From: Candidatus Moraniibacteriota bacterium
GTDB taxonomy: Bacteria > Patescibacteriota > Minisyncoccia > Moranbacterales > UBA2206
Reading direction: 5' to 3'
NCBI GenBank assembly: GCA_037137555.1
Contig: JBAXKA010000010.1
Span: forward strand, 1,051-25,050
DNA length: 24,000 bases
Positions within the stretch are counted from its first letter, which is position 1. Each line of letters starts with the position of its first letter. Below are positions 4,848 to 23,039 of this stretch, piece by piece. The translations under genes were made by a program, and so were the position numbers. The notes below the pieces were generated by a model. It saw only the letters and a list, made by a program, of their open reading frames with translations. It was not told the origin of the DNA and did not search any database.

Positions 4848-5253
4848 TTATCAAAGCAAATCTATAAGCCGGATTCTGTATTATGTAATAATTTATCTAG
4901 CCTTAGCATTACTGCTACGGTCAAGCGGCACTTCCCAATTTACATCAGGACACGGCCTTGCATTTAGATAAGGATTTAGCCGTTTCACCCTTCGACTTCG
5001 CTCAGGGCGAGCCCTGTCTCCATGGCGAACCATGTCTTCAGTGCAAGCCTTGTCTTATGTCGAAGATTTATCCCAAATACTTATTTGGGATACTTTTATT
5101 ATTGCTAATAAAAGCGTCTCTGCTCGCACCTCGCGGATTACTCCGTATGGGTGTTACCCATTACCTTTTCTCGATTGCTCGAGATAAATGTCCGGACTTT
5201 CCTCTCTCGCTCATTAAAATAAACAAGAGTAATTACTCAATTTGCTTTGATAA
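4848..5253 (-). ncRNA. rnpB: RNase P RNA, bacterial type A
   Basis: The reverse strand contains GAGGAAAGUCCGGAC (CR-I), AAGGGUGAAACGGC, CUAGAUAAAU and ACAGAAUCCGGCUUAUAG (CR-V). The P1 pairing is UUAUCAAAGCAAAU (5' end) with AUUUGCUUUGAUAA (3' end). It is a GC-rich island in AT-rich DNA. Ends are approximate, within about 5 nt. Confidence 0.9.
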
Positions 5254-5379: not shown

Positions 5380-7194
5380 ATGTCAATTGAAAAACAAGGT
5401 GAAAACTTAGAAATTATCCGCCATTCAACTTCGCATGTTTTGGCGACAGCCATTTTGGAAATGTTTCCCGAGGCAAAGTTTGCCATCGGTCCAGCCATTG
5501 AAAATGGTTTTTACTATGACTTTGATTTGCCAAGAACTTTAATTCCAGAAGATCTCTTGATTTTGGAAGAAAAAATGCGAGCAATCATCAAAGCTAATCA
5601 TCAATTTGAAAAAGCGGAAATTTCCATCGCCGAAGCGAGAACGGATTTTTCGAAACTCGGACAATACTACAAACTTGAATTAATTAATGATCTAGCTGAA
5701 GCTGGCAACACAAAAGTTTCTATTTACAAATCAGGCGCATTTGTTGATTTATGTTCTGGACCACATCTAGATTCGACTGGCGAAATTCCATTTGATGGAT
5801 TTAAGCTGACGAAAATTTCTGGTGCTTATTGGCGTGGAGATGAAAAAAATAAACAACTACAAAGAATTTATGGCGTCGCCTTTGCAAATAAAGCTGACTT
5901 AAAAAATTATCTATTCATGCTCGAAGAAGCCGAAAAAAGAGACCACAGAAAAATTGGGAAAGAATTAGATCTATTTCATATTGATGAAAAGGTTGGTATT
6001 GGTTTGCCCTTGTGGCATCCCAAGGGAGCTTTGCTTTGGAGAATAGTTGAAGATTATTGGTATAGCGAACATCTCAAAAATGGCTACGATCTTGTTCGCT
6101 CGCCCCATATTGGAAACCGAACTCTTTGGGAAACTTCTGGTCACTGGGGATTTTATAACGCCAGCATGTATCCCTCAATGGAAATTGGTCAAACATTGGA
6201 AGATAAACAAAATAATATTAAACCAAAAGAACCTGAAGAATTTTTATTAAAACCCATGAACTGTCCCTTTCATGTTCAAATTTATAAAAATAATCTAAAA
6301 TCTTATCGCGAACTTCCGCTCAGATGGGCTGAATGTGGAACAGTTTATCGCTATGAAAAGAAAGGTGAACTTTCCGGCTTAACTCGTGTTCGTGGTTTCA
6401 CACAAGATGATGCTCATATTTTTTGTCGTAGCGATCAAGTTGAAGATGAATTAAAAAAAGTTGTTGATTTTATTTTATTTATCTTTAAATCTTTTGGATT
6501 TGATACTAATTTAATCAATGTATATCTCTCACTTCGTGATCCGAAAAATAAAGAAAAATATGCAGGCAACGATCAAGGCTGGGAATTTACACAAAACATA
6601 TTGCGAAAAGTTGCCATTGAAAAGAAATTAAACTTCACAGAAGAAGAAGGCGAGGCTGCTTTTTATGGACCAAAATTAGATTTTAAATTAAAAGATGTTT
6701 TAGGTAGAGAATGGCAATGCTCGACATTGCAGTTTGATTTTAATCTTCCTGAAAGATTCGATATGACTTTCATAAATAACACAGGCGCAGAAGAAAGACC
6801 GTATGTTTTGCATCGAGCATTATTTGGATCGTTTGAAAGATTTTTAGCACTTCTCATTGAACACTACGCTGGGGCATTTCCCACTTGGCTCTCCCCTGTT
6901 CAAATAATGATCATTCCTATTGGTGAAAAATTTAATGCTTATGCTGAATTGATAAAAACACAATTTATTGCCTCTGCTATTCGCATCTCAATTGATGATT
7001 CCAACGAATCACTTGGCAAAAGAATTCGCAACGCCGAAAAACAAAAAATTCCCTATATTTTAGTTGTCGGAGAGAAAGAAGAAACTGATCGCACAGTTGC
7101 TGTTCGCAAAAGAGGCGAAGAAAAAAAGCAAGAGATCCTAGAAGTAGAAAAATTTCTAGAAAAAATCAAAAAAGAAATCAACGAAAAAGCCTAA
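5380..7194 (+). CDS. thrS: Threonyl-tRNA synthetase (no N-terminal TGS domain)
   Basis: 604 aa. It has IIRHSTSHVLA (editing-domain HxxxH), KRDHRKIGKELDLF, RVRGFTQDDAHIFC and the FYGPKLDF class II motifs, plus a C-terminal anticodon-binding domain. Confidence 0.97.
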   Translation: MSIEKQGENLEIIRHSTSHVLATAILEMFPEAKFAIGPAIENGFYYDFDLPRTLIPEDLLILEEKMRAIIKANHQFEKAEISIAEARTDFSKLGQYYKLELINDLAEAGNTKVSIYKSGAFVDLCSGPHLDSTGEIPFDGFKLTKISGAYWRGDEKNKQLQRIYGVAFANKADLKNYLFMLEEAEKRDHRKIGKELDLFHIDEKVGIGLPLWHPKGALLWRIVEDYWYSEHLKNGYDLVRSPHIGNRTLWETSGHWGFYNASMYPSMEIGQTLEDKQNNIKPKEPEEFLLKPMNCPFHVQIYKNNLKSYRELPLRWAECGTVYRYEKKGELSGLTRVRGFTQDDAHIFCRSDQVEDELKKVVDFILFIFKSFGFDTNLINVYLSLRDPKNKEKYAGNDQGWEFTQNILRKVAIEKKLNFTEEEGEAAFYGPKLDFKLKDVLGREWQCSTLQFDFNLPERFDMTFINNTGAEERPYVLHRALFGSFERFLALLIEHYAGAFPTWLSPVQIMIIPIGEKFNAYAELIKTQFIASAIRISIDDSNESLGKRIRNAEKQKIPYILVVGEKEETDRTVAVRKRGEEKKQEILEVEKFLEKIKKEINEKA

Positions 7195-13931: not shown

Positions 13932-14480
13932 ATGAAATTAATTATCGGACTAGGCAATCCTGGTCAAAAATATCAAAATACTCGCCACAATCTTGGCTTT
14001 ATCTTTCTCGAAAAATTACAAGAAAAATGGTTATTTCCTGATTTTAAATTAGCCCAGAAATTCAATGCCGAGTTATCCAGCGGTGAAATAAATAATCAAA
14101 AAATTATGCTTGTCAAACCACAAAGTTTCATGAATTTATCAGGAGAAGTAGTGAATAAAATTTTAACATTCTATAAACTCACGCCCGAAAATTTATTAGT
14201 TTTGCATGATGACAAGGATTTGTTTTGTGGAAAATATAAATTAACCCTTGATTCTTCATCGGCCGGCCATAATGGCGTACAAAATATTATCGATCAGTTG
14301 GACACAAAAAAATTCGCTCGCTTGCGAGTTGGCATTAAAACAGAACCGATTGATCGTGCCATGACGCAACCAGAAGTCAGTGATTTTGTTTTGGGAAAAT
14401 TAACGCCAGAAGAATTAGAAAAAATCGGACAAATAACACCAGAAGTTTTAGCAGAAATTGAAAAAAATATTGTTACCTAG
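13932..14480 (+). CDS. pth: Peptidyl-tRNA hydrolase
   Basis: MKLIIGLGNPGQKYQNTRHNLGF, FMNLSGE, VLHDD and GHNGVQNI motifs. Confidence 0.97.
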   Translation: MKLIIGLGNPGQKYQNTRHNLGFIFLEKLQEKWLFPDFKLAQKFNAELSSGEINNQKIMLVKPQSFMNLSGEVVNKILTFYKLTPENLLVLHDDKDLFCGKYKLTLDSSSAGHNGVQNIIDQLDTKKFARLRVGIKTEPIDRAMTQPEVSDFVLGKLTPEELEKIGQITPEVLAEIEKNIVT

Positions 14481-14500
14481 TTTTTTCAAAAAAATGACCC

Positions 14501-14529
14501 TTGACAATTATTATTATTATAAATACAAT
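14501..14529 (+). promoter_or_regulatory. Near-consensus sigma70-type promoter driving the candidate sRNA
   Basis: TTGACA (14501-14506), 17-nt spacer, TACAAT (14524-14529). Two overlapping TATAAT hexamers follow (14530-14535 and 14535-14540). Confidence 0.5.
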
Positions 14530-14535
14530 TATAAT

Positions 14536-14673
14536 ATAATCTATACTGTCTCGTGGGACTGAAATGCAGGAAATCGGCTCTACTGCGGAGCGTTAGTAGA
14601 CTCCTCTGGAGTATCCAACGCGCTACGATGGGGGTTGCCGTTCCCCCAGTCCCATAAGAGAGTATAGTTTTTT
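14536..14673 (+). ncRNA. Candidate structured small RNA of unknown class (four-helix junction, long closing stem, U-tract)
   Basis: GC-rich island in AT-rich DNA. The closing helix 14541-14560/14648-14667 spans 20 positions: 17 Watson-Crick pairs, 1 G-U pair, 2 mismatches. T6 follows at 14668-14673. Internal hairpins are 14565-14569/14583-14587, 14590-14594/14617-14621 enclosing 14600-14604/14608-14612, and GGGGG/CCCCC at 14630-14634/14643-14647. The strand is chosen from promoter and U-tract. The ends are predictions. Confidence 0.5.
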
Positions 14674-15134
14674 ATTATATATTTTTCATCTCTTATTCGA
14701 AAAGCGGTAGAAACTTGAATTTCTCTTACTGTTAAATCTGCACTAGCTTTATTACTTCCAGCTAGTTCATTGCACTCGCGAACAACTGAAGAAATTTCTA
14801 AAATTTCAACGGCACAAAGATATTCCTCGTTACTAATTCTCTTAGTAAGACAAAAATCGCCCCTTTTTCCTTCCGCATTTCCATATATCCTATCAGGACA
14901 TTTTACTATTTCATGCAAATGATCAATGATAAATAAAAATTCTTCCGCCGGTCTTTTATCAAATAAATGTTTTACGCAACGAGATGTTATATAAACATTT
15001 TTTGCTGAATTTTTAATTTCGATACCTTCGATAACAGCTTCAGTGAGCCGACACAAAAGTACTTTGCGATTAGCAACTATTGCTTTTTGCGGAGTGCCTT
15101 TTATATAATTTTCAAAAAATTTACTCAAATACAT
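14580..15134 (-). CDS. Hypothetical protein, putative BECR-fold (PBECR-like) RNase
   Basis: 184 aa. The pattern NVYITSRCVKHLFDKRPAEEF...IIDHLHEIVKCPDRIY...EYLCAVEILE...IQVSTAFRIRDEKYIIKNYTLLWD matches, from memory, small phage/plasmid PBECR nuclease-fold proteins (xHxxxKHPxD, IxxNPDxI, VAVx, TxF). The last ~28 aa are read through the GC-rich RNA candidate and may not be native. Function is not verified. Confidence 0.45.
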   Translation of the reverse strand: MYLSKFFENYIKGTPQKAIVANRKVLLCRLTEAVIEGIEIKNSAKNVYITSRCVKHLFDKRPAEEFLFIIDHLHEIVKCPDRIYGNAEGKRGDFCLTKRISNEEYLCAVEILEISSVVRECNELAGSNKASADLTVREIQVSTAFRIRDEKYIIKNYTLLWDWGNGNPHRSALDTPEESTNAPQ

Positions 15135-15178
15135 AGCTTTTGTCGAGTGTAATTTTTGTTATTCTACAAGAATAATTT

Positions 15179-15742
15179 CTACTTTAAGATTTTTTCCATC
15201 ATTTCATCTGTCTGTCTTTTTAATTCATCGGCCGTTCCATTATTGTTCAATTTAAATTCAGCATGTCTGCCAATTTCATGAATAGATAATTCTGTTAGCC
15301 GTCCTTCTTCTTCCATAAATTGTTCTAGCGTTGCTTCGTCTTCACCTTCTTTTTCTTTACGCATTTTCGTGCGTTCATAACGCAATCGCAAATCAGCTGT
15401 CACATAGACAAGATAAAAATTTTCTCGATATTTTTTTTGAAATGGCTCGACATCTCCATGCATCCTGATACCATCAGCCATTACTAAGTCCGCATCATTT
15501 TTTTCAATATCCCAAATCAATGAATCAATAATCACCGAAGGGCCATAACCTTCCTTAAGCACTAAGGCTAATTTAATTAAATTATCCCGTGTTACTGGTA
15601 AATGCAAATCTTCCAATGTTCGACGAAGAATTTTTGAAGTGCCAAAATGCACCGCTCCATATTTTTCCAATAAATAATCAGAGACCGTGCCTTTTCCCGC
15701 TCCTTTTTCGCCAATGAGTCCAATGACAATTTTTCTTTTCAT
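15179..15742 (-). CDS. P-loop nucleotide/nucleoside kinase-fold protein (dNMP kinase / CoaE-like)
   Basis: 187 aa. It has a Walker A (IGLIGEKGAGKGTV), then ADGIRMHGDVE (a DxR-type motif as in the adenylate-kinase-like clade) and a Glu/Lys-rich lid region. It starts 18 nt after the rplA stop. Confidence 0.7.
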   Translation of the reverse strand: MKRKIVIGLIGEKGAGKGTVSDYLLEKYGAVHFGTSKILRRTLEDLHLPVTRDNLIKLALVLKEGYGPSVIIDSLIWDIEKNDADLVMADGIRMHGDVEPFQKKYRENFYLVYVTADLRLRYERTKMRKEKEGEDEATLEQFMEEEGRLTELSIHEIGRHAEFKLNNNGTADELKRQTDEMMEKILK

Positions 15743-15760
15743 GTTTTTTTTAAAAATAAA

Positions 15761-16450
15761 CTAGATTGTAATTTTGAAACCAACGCCCATTGTTGAACAA
15801 AGAGCAATATTTCTGACTAGTTTTCCTTTGAGGCTGGCTGGTTTCATTTTTTCTACGCTATCCAAGAAAGCTTTAATATTTTCCAAAAGTTTTTCATCTG
15901 CAAAAGAAAGTTTTCCTACGACTTGATGAATATTGCCAGAGTTATCAGTTTTATAAGTAGCACGACCTTTTTTCAATGCATCAATAGTTTCTTTGACTTT
16001 CGTTGTGACTGTTTCTGTTTTTGGGTTTGGCATCAAGCCTTTTGGTCCCAAAATTTTTGCTACAACAGCAAGTTTTGGCATCATTTCCGGTGTCGCAACA
16101 AGCACATCAAAACCACCATCTTCTGAAAATATTTTTCCATTTTTAATTTTTTCAATCAATTCTTCTCCGCCAACAATTTCTGCACCAGCTTTTTTGGCAT
16201 CATCCGCGCTAGTTGAAGTTATAACAGCAATGCGTTTATTTTTTCCTGTACCATGTGGCAAAGAAACAGCGCTACGAATTTGTTGATCAGTTTTTTTCGG
16301 ATCAATTCCTGTTTTAATATGCACTTCAACAGATTCATCAAATTTAGCAATTTTATTATCTCGCACAAGTTGCAAAGCTTCTTCTAGTGAATAGCTTTTT
16401 TCTCTGTCCAATTTCTCCGTTACTGCTCGATATTTTTTTCCATGTGCCAT
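15761..16450 (-). CDS. rplA: 50S ribosomal protein L1
   Basis: 229 aa, MAHGKKYR...FDESVEVHIKTGIDPKKTDQQIR...LPHGTGK...KILGPKGLMPNPK. Confidence 0.97.
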   Translation of the reverse strand: MAHGKKYRAVTEKLDREKSYSLEEALQLVRDNKIAKFDESVEVHIKTGIDPKKTDQQIRSAVSLPHGTGKNKRIAVITSTSADDAKKAGAEIVGGEELIEKIKNGKIFSEDGGFDVLVATPEMMPKLAVVAKILGPKGLMPNPKTETVTTKVKETIDALKKGRATYKTDNSGNIHQVVGKLSFADEKLLENIKAFLDSVEKMKPASLKGKLVRNIALCSTMGVGFKITI

Positions 16451-22590: not shown

Positions 22591-23019
22591 GGGGATGCCT
22601 GGTTTCGACAAGTTGTACGTTTAAAATATGCAAGCCGAGTTTTTATAGTTACTCGTAAAACTACTATTAAAGTTATAAGTGCAAACTTACTAACAAAAGC
22701 AAGAACTGCAATTGCTAACGCTTTTACAGTCAACTTCGCTACCGCTCTTGCCTAATACCGGTCTTTATCGGTTAGGGCATTAGCCATCGAATTTACTTTC
22801 GCCTAAGAGGTAATATTCGGTGTCATATTTTTGGGCTAGCTTTCAATAATCTTTCTGGTTATTTTAAGTAAAAATATAATTCCAGAAATAAATTGAAAAG
22901 GTTTTGTTTGCTTTCCACTTTTCAATTGATCTGCCTTCGGCGGAAATTAAAGCAAAATACGCTTGTAGTATATTTTAGATGAATAATTTTGGACATGGGT
23001 TCAACTCCCATCATCTCCA
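22591..23019 (+). ncRNA. ssrA: tmRNA (SsrA), one-piece
   Basis: The 5' end GGGGAUGCCUGGUUUCGACA pairs with the 3' end CAUCUCC-A, giving a G3-U acceptor pair. The T-arm is AUGGG-UUCAACU-CCCAU. The candidate tag frame 22681-22755 reads ANLLTKARTAIANAFTVNFATALA*. CCA is not encoded. Confidence 0.92.
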
Positions 23020-23039
23020 CAAATGAATTAATAATTTAA

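Follow-up and report, generated by a model that had tools for sequence, protein, structure and literature searches.

What is encoded between the ribosomal protein genes and pth in a 24,000-nucleotide stretch of a Candidatus Moraniibacteriota genome (contig JBAXKA010000010.1, positions 1,051–25,050; hereafter the window)? According to the list of open reading frames (ORFs), the minus strand of the window carries a secE, nusG, rplK, rplA run, which is followed by a kinase-like gene and by a gene for a 184-residue protein that converges on pth (13932–14480, plus strand). A sequence-only reading of this locus had proposed that the last two genes form a cassette of a P-loop kinase and a BECR-fold ribonuclease (RNase), together with a convergent RNA. 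The best explanation of the present data is different: the genome acquired a self-contained module of ~0.65 kb between the kinase gene and pth, consisting of a PBECR3-type RNase gene and a convergent small RNA (sRNA). Below, G000 denotes the genome of the window (assembly size 1.09 Mb, completeness 99%), other G numbers denote sampled genomes, and L numbers denote fetched loci.

The PBECR3-like protein and its convergent structured RNA

The ORF at 14580–15134 (minus strand) encodes a protein of the PBECR/BECR clade, a predicted RNase and putative toxin. Pfam PBECR3 (PF18812) scores 29.7 bits against it (E 6.4e-7; gathering cut-off 30), 22 of 26 homologues match the profile at E ≤ 0.01 (best 2.9e-10), six of the 26 also match PBECR2, and precomputed PF18812 hits exist for many cluster representatives. 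Residues K55, H56, D59, K60, P62–F66, R91, G92, T143, and R148 are invariant in the family alignment. The AlphaFold2 model, with a mean predicted local distance difference test (pLDDT) score of 81, contains helices 51–60 and 63–78 and strands 82–86, 94–100, 103–115, and 135–146, so the invariant K55-H56 lies inside the first helix and the invariant T143 inside the last strand. PBECR families are defined by a His in a helix plus a C-terminal Thr/Ser, and the helix His56 and late-strand Thr143 fit this active-site layout (PMC5512222). A Foldseek search of BFVD with the model retrieved predicted phage proteins of just the kinds that carry PBECR domains, namely minor capsid proteins, MuF C-terminal domains (MuF-C), N4-type virion RNA polymerases, and polyvalent proteins (E 1.5e-5 to 2.5e-3, prob 1.0, query TM-score (TMq) 0.44–0.52).

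The motifs VKHLFDKRP, DHLHEIVKCPDRIY, and STAFR, on which a BECR fold had been guessed, are all present in the translation, and the PBECR3 profile, the invariant His56/Thr143 pair, and the structural matches to MuF-C and polyvalent proteins show that this guess was right. Metal-independent endoribonuclease activity would be expected of a member of this clade. A profile search of PDB sequences gave no match to the 184-residue protein, PADLOC, PHROGs, and NCBIfam gave no useful one, and the ToxN/CptN/TenpN families did not match it in Pfam, PADLOC, or PHROGs. Residues 170–184 are a read-through tail encoded by the RNA gene (see below) and are predicted to be disordered (pLDDT <50). The idea that the whole ORF is an artefact of the RNA gene was rejected in view of the conservation of the protein, its Pfam match, its confident fold, and a stop codon that may be UAG, UAA, or UGA.

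The last codons of the ORF lie inside a GC-rich element with fold z-scores of −5.7 and −4.4 versus shuffles on the two strands; for 14538–14672 (plus strand) the z-score is −4.65. Across homologous loci this region is 90–93% identical at the DNA level, versus 72–78% for the whole module. A 13-mer (CCGCAGTAGAGCC on the ORF strand) keeps its position and orientation in 70 of 71 loci, down to 28–40% protein identity, the sole exception being cut by a contig end. The element is the structured sRNA of ~135 nt (14536–14673, plus strand), recognised by a covariance model, covariation, the strand test, and the fold z-score; it is the putative RNA antitoxin. Its span of ~14536–14673 follows from a promoter just upstream of the first helix (P1) and a U6 tract just after it. 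The overlap with the ORF comprises 94 nt (14580–14673), i.e., the last 94 nt of the ORF; it is fully complementary, and the ORF stop codon (14580–14582) lies inside the RNA.

An alignment of 58 RNA copies shows three helices, P1, P2, and P3, and the invariant junctions UGAAAnnCAGAAAGGCUCUACUGCGG and ACGAUG. In the window, the 5′ strand of P1 (14541–14560) pairs with its 3′ strand (14648–14667) to form a closing helix of ~20 bp, which is found in the minimum free energy (MFE) fold and shows compensatory changes in 16 of its 20 pairs. A conserved junction, UGAAAUGCAGGAAAUCGGCUCUACUGCGG (14561–14588), follows; it contains the invariant 13-mer GGCUCUACUGCGG (14576–14588) and a possible D-arm-like GCAG/CUGC hairpin. 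P2 (14587–14624) is a long hairpin that is interrupted by an internal loop and varies strongly at its tip (hypervariable); seven of its nine modelled pairs (helices 3 and 4) are compensatory and 96–99% of the alignment cells are paired. The segment 14625–14647, defined by the alignment and by covariation, comprises the junction ACGAU(G) and P3, a 5-bp hairpin with an 8-nt loop that is stacked directly on the 3′ strand of P1. The terminator-like U6 tract (14668–14673) comes right after P1, and a T-rich tail is found at this position in most aligned loci.

Overall, 95.4% of the cells pair on this structure, versus 44–48% with the partners slid, and 26 of 36 base pairs show compensatory changes; the observed values were reached by none of 500 shuffles. 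A mutual-information scan recovered the same nested helices plus one extra P2 pair and nothing else, and a pseudoknot or tertiary pair was thus rejected. Over 35 unpaired positions do not vary even at phylum-level divergence. In MFE folds, GCAG pairs with CUGC in the first junction, giving a four-way, cloverleaf-like layout whose helix order is that of tRNA (acceptor, D, anticodon, variable, T). The RNA was not accepted as a tRNA: the detectors are negative, a 7-nt anticodon loop is absent, and the resemblance is limited to the helix order. A peptide encoded by the sRNA from the AUG in ACGAUG was likewise rejected, since relatives differ by indels in the P3 loop and the reading frame is not kept among them. 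Rfam 15 gave no match at the window RNA (E ≤ 10), in 20 related loci (gathering score), or in two phage loci; the RNA is a new, strongly covarying family. Some copies carry insertions of 15–70 nt, which in L097 and L109 are next to the invariant core (3′ of the 13-mer as read on the ORF strand) and in L228 and L244 inside P2; the RNA tolerates expansion segments at defined sites.

The RNA is on the plus strand, antisense to the ORF, because of its G·U excess, its own promoter, and its co-orientation with phage tRNAs. The helices read on the plus strand of the window contain 262 G·U versus 30 A·C cells, and canonical pairing is 95.7% there versus 83.5% on the ORF strand. The promoter (14501–14529, plus strand) consists of a −35 element TTGACA (14501–14506), a 17-nt spacer, and a −10 element TACAAT (14524–14529), i.e., 11 of 12 consensus matches. 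At the same position, at least 10 of 12 matches were found in 48% of 62 loci versus 1.6% of control windows, and the −10 element lies at a constant ~45–50 nt from the invariant block. In the ORF's own upstream region, promoter matches are weak and variable, and there is no terminator between the kinase gene and the ORF in G000. The same count of G·U and A·C cells, the promoter, and the phage tRNA co-orientation exclude an RNA on the ORF sense strand, such as a 3′ untranslated region or a terminator.

In most relatives, the ORF ends at the conserved CAUCGUAG, where UAG, UAA, and UGA all occur. This usual stop lies just 5′ of the ACGAU(G) junction, at the 3′ end of P2 (CUA in CUACGAUG, window 14623–14625). 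In the subfamily of G000, a 1-nt difference in P3 shifts the frame, and the ORF therefore reads on past the usual stop; the next in-frame stop lies within the invariant 13-mer.

RNA and ORF are tightly linked, with a marked asymmetry of occurrence. Covariance model R1 finds one copy in G000 (G000:C10:15588–15722, window 14538–14672; 122.7 bits), and in a search of 151 genomes of the order the four ORF carriers were the only ones with a hit. In each of 10 further ORF-positive genomes a single RNA hit lies at the ORF 3′ end, opposite in strand, and the RNA is present in all 13 genomes found by protein search alone (HMMER). Thus, every evaluable ORF locus has the RNA, and wherever the two are linked they overlap convergently, the ORF stop falling within the RNA gene. 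The suggestion that this RNA is part of the module was correct: the structured element 14538–14672 (plus strand) stands behind its own promoter and is linked to the ORF. Conversely, 19 of 77 evaluable loci (~25%) with the exact 19-mer core, of metagenomic and viral origin, carry no PBECR3-like ORF. Five of these (L242, L250, L262, L285, and L309) are copies with a long, bacterial-type P1, apparently orphan RNAs whose protein gene was lost. At least 10 ORF-less loci (~6 independent) are compact copies of 67–95 nt that retain all the invariant blocks; they lie ≤400 nt from tRNA genes, always co-oriented, on phage contigs with 14–26 tRNAs. A 14-mer scan of viral contigs yielded mostly chance matches, and the covariance model confirmed five of 80.

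Individual phage loci illustrate the arrangement. A compact RNA is found between tRNA-Val and tRNA-Thr in a 26-tRNA array on a 99-kb viral contig (L135:9954–10041, minus strand), another between two tRNA-Leu genes in a 20-tRNA array (L229, about 6105–6206, minus strand), and a third 6 nt upstream of tRNA-Gly (L131:5329–5397, plus strand).

Distribution of the module and the adjacent kinase gene

The PBECR3-like gene is sporadic. It was found in 9 of 301 genomes of the order, one of these nine being among 13 genus-mates, and in 8 of 401 genomes of the phylum, each from a different genus, which corresponds to ~2–3% of the sampled Patescibacteria genomes. The genomic contexts vary from uvrA/groEL to transporters of the major facilitator superfamily. 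When the ORFs lying up to 2.6 kb from the gene were clustered across 57 loci, no recurrent neighbour emerged, the most frequent one occurring in five, and the gaps of 44 nt and 100 nt beside the 184-residue ORF are too small for a protein antitoxin gene.

In same-genus relatives, homology of the flanks stops at the pth and kinase genes. In place of positions 14486–15175 of G000, genus-mates have an unrelated spacer of ~310 bp with the terminator of the kinase gene. In G122 the module is located elsewhere than in the pth/kinase spacer, and G000 is otherwise the sole carrier among the sampled genus-mates. Homology among modules spans only from the ORF ATG to the 5′ end of the RNA. Comparison of G000 with empty pth/kinase spacers revealed no target-site duplication, no terminal repeats, and no transposon-like ends. 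Because genus-mates have the unrelated spacer where G000 has the module, and because the contexts vary, the PBECR3-like gene is an insertion beside the kinase gene and not a partner of it.

Two further observations concern these contexts. The spacer of genus-mates (L015:1160–1500, L017, and L019) contains a conserved block …AAGGAGGGTGTTTTCACTTTCAAACTTACGCACGAAAC… followed by the GC-rich terminator of the kinase operon; possibly the spacer is a small non-coding element in its own right. Several Patescibacteria have the gene-RNA pair precisely between hsdM (N6_Mtase) and hsdS (Methylase_S) of a type I restriction-modification (R-M) system (L048:4027–7983, L053, L055, and L057), often with a LexA-like gene upstream; at these loci, the module is nested inside a defence island.

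In the window, rplA (15761–16450, minus strand; ribosomal protein L1), recognised from the ORF list and from tblastn synteny across relatives, is the last ribosomal gene of the run and provides the context. As had been described, the ORF list places the 187-residue kinase ORF (15179–15742, minus strand) 18 nt past rplA (15743–15760) and the 184-residue ORF 44 nt further on (15135–15178). The 187-residue protein has the P-loop GEKGAGKG, and Pfam AAA_17, AAA_18, and AAA_33 match it above their cut-offs, so its description as a P-loop kinase holds. It also matches the kinase domains of phage deoxynucleoside monophosphate (dNMP) kinases and of anti-phage dCTP deaminases. The closest solved structures are the Sulfolobus AdkA-like/UPF0200 proteins 3lw7 and 3h0k (E 6e-14, full length); NCBIfam PRK08356 reaches 60 bits, far under its equivalog cut-off of 189 bits. 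Archaeal AdkA-like/UPF0200 kinases (3lw7, 3h0k, PRK08356) resemble the 187-residue protein in size and in the P-loop nucleoside monophosphate kinase fold, whereas its host is bacterial (Patescibacteria) and its gene is fixed downstream of rplA. Profiles, structures, and synteny thus mark it as a conserved rplA neighbour with an AdkA-like/UPF0200-like nucleotide-kinase fold, outside the module.

Two other labels were discarded. The name dephospho-CoA kinase (CoaE), given by one source and also considered as a housekeeping identity in the sequence-only reading, fails since the CoaE profiles score below cut-off (PF01121, 12.2 versus 27 bits; TIGR00152, 20.8 versus 65.6 bits, over the P-loop only). 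Adenylate kinase fails similarly (PF00406, 22.2 versus 26.8 bits, P-loop only), and the true adk of G000 is elsewhere, on contig C20 (119 bits). A profile search showed that G000 encodes adk, gmk, and tmk; neither Pfam Cytidylate_kin nor CoaE matched anywhere in this genome, which is 99% complete. The 187-residue protein appears to be a lineage-specific, housekeeping-type nucleotide kinase fixed at the end of the nusG-rplK-rplA operon, and a role as (d)CMP/dNMP kinase is plausible because the genome lacks a canonical cmk. Many same-family genomes (L026, L027, L030, L031, L033, L034, L036, L037, L039, and L041) carry a second, divergent kinase paralog (23–33% identity) on the same strand, 0.2–1 kb beyond the rplA-linked one. 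The copy of this paralog in G000 is elsewhere (C17:422–961, ~2.7 kb from tmk), and the two AdkA-like paralogs of G000 are candidates for the missing (d)CMP kinase.

The proposed cassette would join this kinase to the BECR nuclease, either as a damage-and-repair pair of RNase and polynucleotide 5′-kinase or as toxin and immunity protein. In G000 the two genes are indeed adjacent, co-oriented, 44 nt apart, and without an intervening terminator, and AAA_33 is a broad P-loop kinase family. The distribution nevertheless refutes the pairing, to which virtually no credence is left. Kinase orthologs with 73–90% identity are present in 13 of 13 same-genus genomes and in ~39 same-family genomes (sample of 301 genomes of the order); the gene is directly downstream of rplA in 27 of 29 fetched related loci (tblastn synteny), and in genus-mates it then converges straight on pth, regardless of the nuclease, which only one of the 13 genus-mates has. 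Kinase and nuclease genes are found on separate contigs in G122, G190, and G217; the survey of 57 loci did not turn up a kinase as a recurrent neighbour, and the RNase stands without the kinase in all other loci. Conservation is also unequal, with 75–95% identity over >120 sequence clusters, mostly Moranbacteria/Moraniibacteriota, for the kinase versus 40–79% for the nuclease. That the two genes do not co-occur elsewhere had been named beforehand as the finding that would speak against their partnership, and it is what was observed. Of the attractive kinase-nuclease reading, the BECR half stands, through the Pfam PBECR3 match, the active-site layout, and the Foldseek similarity to MuF-C; the kinase half is corrected.

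Elsewhere in the window, Rfam recognises only two RNAs, transfer-messenger RNA (22591–23022, plus strand; tag ANLLTKARTAIANAFTVNFATALA) and RNase P RNA class A (4849–5248, minus strand).

A putative RNA antidote and its alternatives

The module is somewhat more probably than not toxin-antitoxin-like, with a BECR RNase as the toxin and a cloverleaf-shaped antisense sRNA as its antidote. This reading rests on the features expected of a toxin with an RNA antidote, since the ORF never occurs without the RNA, the RNA can occur alone, there is no protein partner, the spread is patchy and horizontally scattered with R-M islands among the contexts, and the promoter is strong for the RNA but weak for the protein. 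Recognition of the folded RNA in trans is suggested by its invariant unpaired positions, by helix covariation, and by the copies that stand alone in phages; the RNase would be the likeliest recogniser, given that colicins D and E5, which are BECR toxins, cleave tRNAs. The RNA may thus bind and inhibit the toxin protein. In a type III manner, the folded RNA would most likely bind the RNase as a decoy or pseudo-substrate through the invariant junction in its tRNA-like four-way layout. Complementarity to the 3′ end of the mRNA, including the stop codon, would add antisense control in a type I manner, for example via RNase III, which is encoded in G000. The compact copies in phage tRNA arrays may be antidote mimics directed against such RNases, by analogy with pseudo-ToxI (PMC3475682) and with the action of a T5 tRNA against PARIS (PMC11464382). 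Taken to its full extent, i.e., a tRNA-mimicking decoy sRNA against a BECR tRNase as a hybrid type I/III class in Patescibacteria, with large phages having captured compact copies into their tRNA arrays as counter-defence, the proposal is less probable than not.

Several points weigh against a toxin with an RNA antidote. Foldseek gave no significant match for the 184-residue model in the PDB, with RelE entries at E 0.4–1.7, and the toxicity of PBECR3 proteins is itself a prediction (PMC5512222). ARAGORN and Rfam RF00005 call no tRNA at the RNA, either in the window or in the phage loci, and the D-arm-like helix, being invariant, shows no covariation by which it could be tested. The set of 62 loci is biased, as one of the two peptide patterns used to fetch it lies in the overlap region; the 13 genomes found with HMMER are free of this bias. 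The ORF-less phage copies could be an RNA with a function of its own, unrelated to neutralising a protein. Finally, the architecture fits neither canonical type I systems, which have a small peptide toxin, nor type III systems, which have an upstream tandem-repeat RNA.

Two other explanations were considered. In one, judged improbable here, the sRNA would act purely in cis, pairing with the 3′ end of the ORF mRNA and leading to RNase III cleavage or loss of the stop, its structure serving stability. The convergent overlap that places the stop inside the RNA gene at every ORF-linked locus, the strong sRNA promoter opposite a weak ORF promoter, and the presence of RNase III in the genome are all consistent with such a mechanism, as are the 3′-overlapping antitoxin RNAs of Bacillus type I systems. 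Yet more than 35 invariant unpaired nucleotides and covarying helices point to selection on a three-dimensional shape that cis-antisense pairing does not need; the compact copies in phage tRNA arrays have no cis target; and the toxin is an enzyme of 150–190 residues, not a membrane peptide.

The same structural conservation is what would be expected if the tRNA-like RNA were the working partner or substrate of the PBECR3-like protein in a non-toxic ribonucleoprotein (RNP), with a role in processing, modification, or scaffolding, also in phages, and none in addiction or defence. Such extreme conservation is typical of RNP RNAs, the RNA lacks the ORF in a quarter of the loci and is presumably processed like tRNAs in the phage arrays, and certain PBECR domains (MuF) probably bind RNA without being catalytically active (PMC5512222). 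This possibility is considered unlikely, however, as the catalytic His/Thr pair is invariant in the 184-residue family. In addition, the module occurs in only 2–3% of genomes, from different genera, and in varied contexts including R-M islands, as selfish or defence modules do and housekeeping RNPs do not, and an ORF that never lacks the RNA while the reverse is common is the asymmetry expected of a toxin and its antidote.

Comparison with known systems

BECR/RelE-superfamily RNases are among the commonest toxins of bacterial conflict systems, and, to our knowledge, all known toxins of this superfamily are neutralised by proteins. A literature search on BECR, antisense RNA, and antitoxin found no system combining them, and in the papers found to mention PBECR no associated RNA is described. 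If the toxin-antidote reading is true, the module would represent the first RNA antitoxin for a BECR/RelE-superfamily toxin and would widen the toxin-antitoxin repertoire, the antidote being an RNA that is laid out like a tRNA and lies antisense to the stop codon of its toxin. Phage tRNA clusters would then contain a novel type of non-tRNA cargo, by which one class of their unexplained non-tRNA inserts could be accounted for, and the solo PBECR3 proteins gain a first testable functional context.

Type I systems with 3′-overlapping antisense RNAs include txpA/RatA and bsrG/SR4 of Bacillus subtilis, and SymE/SymR for an RNase-like toxin. The module resembles them in that its sRNA is convergent, overlaps the ORF, and is antisense in cis, in that the antitoxin promoter is the strong one and the toxin promoter the weak one, and in a possible dependence on RNase III. 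Its protein, in contrast, has a soluble enzyme fold of 184 residues and is not a hydrophobic peptide of <~60 residues, and its RNA has invariant unpaired blocks that span the phylum, covarying helices, and free-standing phage copies.

In the type III systems ToxIN, CptIN, and TenpIN, an endoribonuclease toxin is combined with an RNA antitoxin (reviewed in PMC5086642). The module resembles them in its putative endoribonuclease toxin, in an RNA antidote proposed to bind the protein, and in its sporadic, mobile spread. However, the toxin fold is BECR and not ToxN/AbiQ-like, and the RNA is a single cloverleaf-like molecule of ~135 nt that is convergent to the toxin gene and overlaps its 3′ end, with no upstream repeat array; the only tandem repeat found in 14300–15900 is a trivial 8-nt array inside the kinase gene. 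Type II RelE/ParE modules (PMC11980606) have the BECR fold and a small solo gene in common with the present protein, its Foldseek likeness to RelE being weak, but here no protein antitoxin gene is adjacent and no neighbour exceeds 5 of 57 loci.

The phage BECR RNase domains of the PBECR3/MuF-C type (PF18812; Iyer et al. 2017, PMC5512222) share with the 184-residue protein a profile similarity, which in the window falls just short of the gathering cut-off, and a helix followed by a core of four to five strands. Whereas those are domains of virion or polyvalent proteins, the protein here is the product of a solo chromosomal gene of Patescibacteria (150–190 residues), always coupled to an antisense structured RNA, and such a coupling is undescribed for any PBECR family. 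As for the compact copies, phages are known to encode RNAs against host defences: pseudo-ToxI is an antitoxin-RNA mimic (PMC3475682), and the T5 tRNA-Lys neutralises PARIS (PMC11464382). Like phage tRNAs that act against tRNA-targeting defences, the compact copies occupy co-oriented sites in tRNA arrays and have a four-helix layout in tRNA order; unlike them, they are missed by tRNA detectors and have no 7-nt anticodon loop, so that a decoding role is not expected and a decoy role is the one suggested. Collectively, the module shows part of what defines type I and part of what defines type III, and, as it has neither a peptide toxin nor a repeat array, it would best be filed as a variant of RNA-antitoxin systems.

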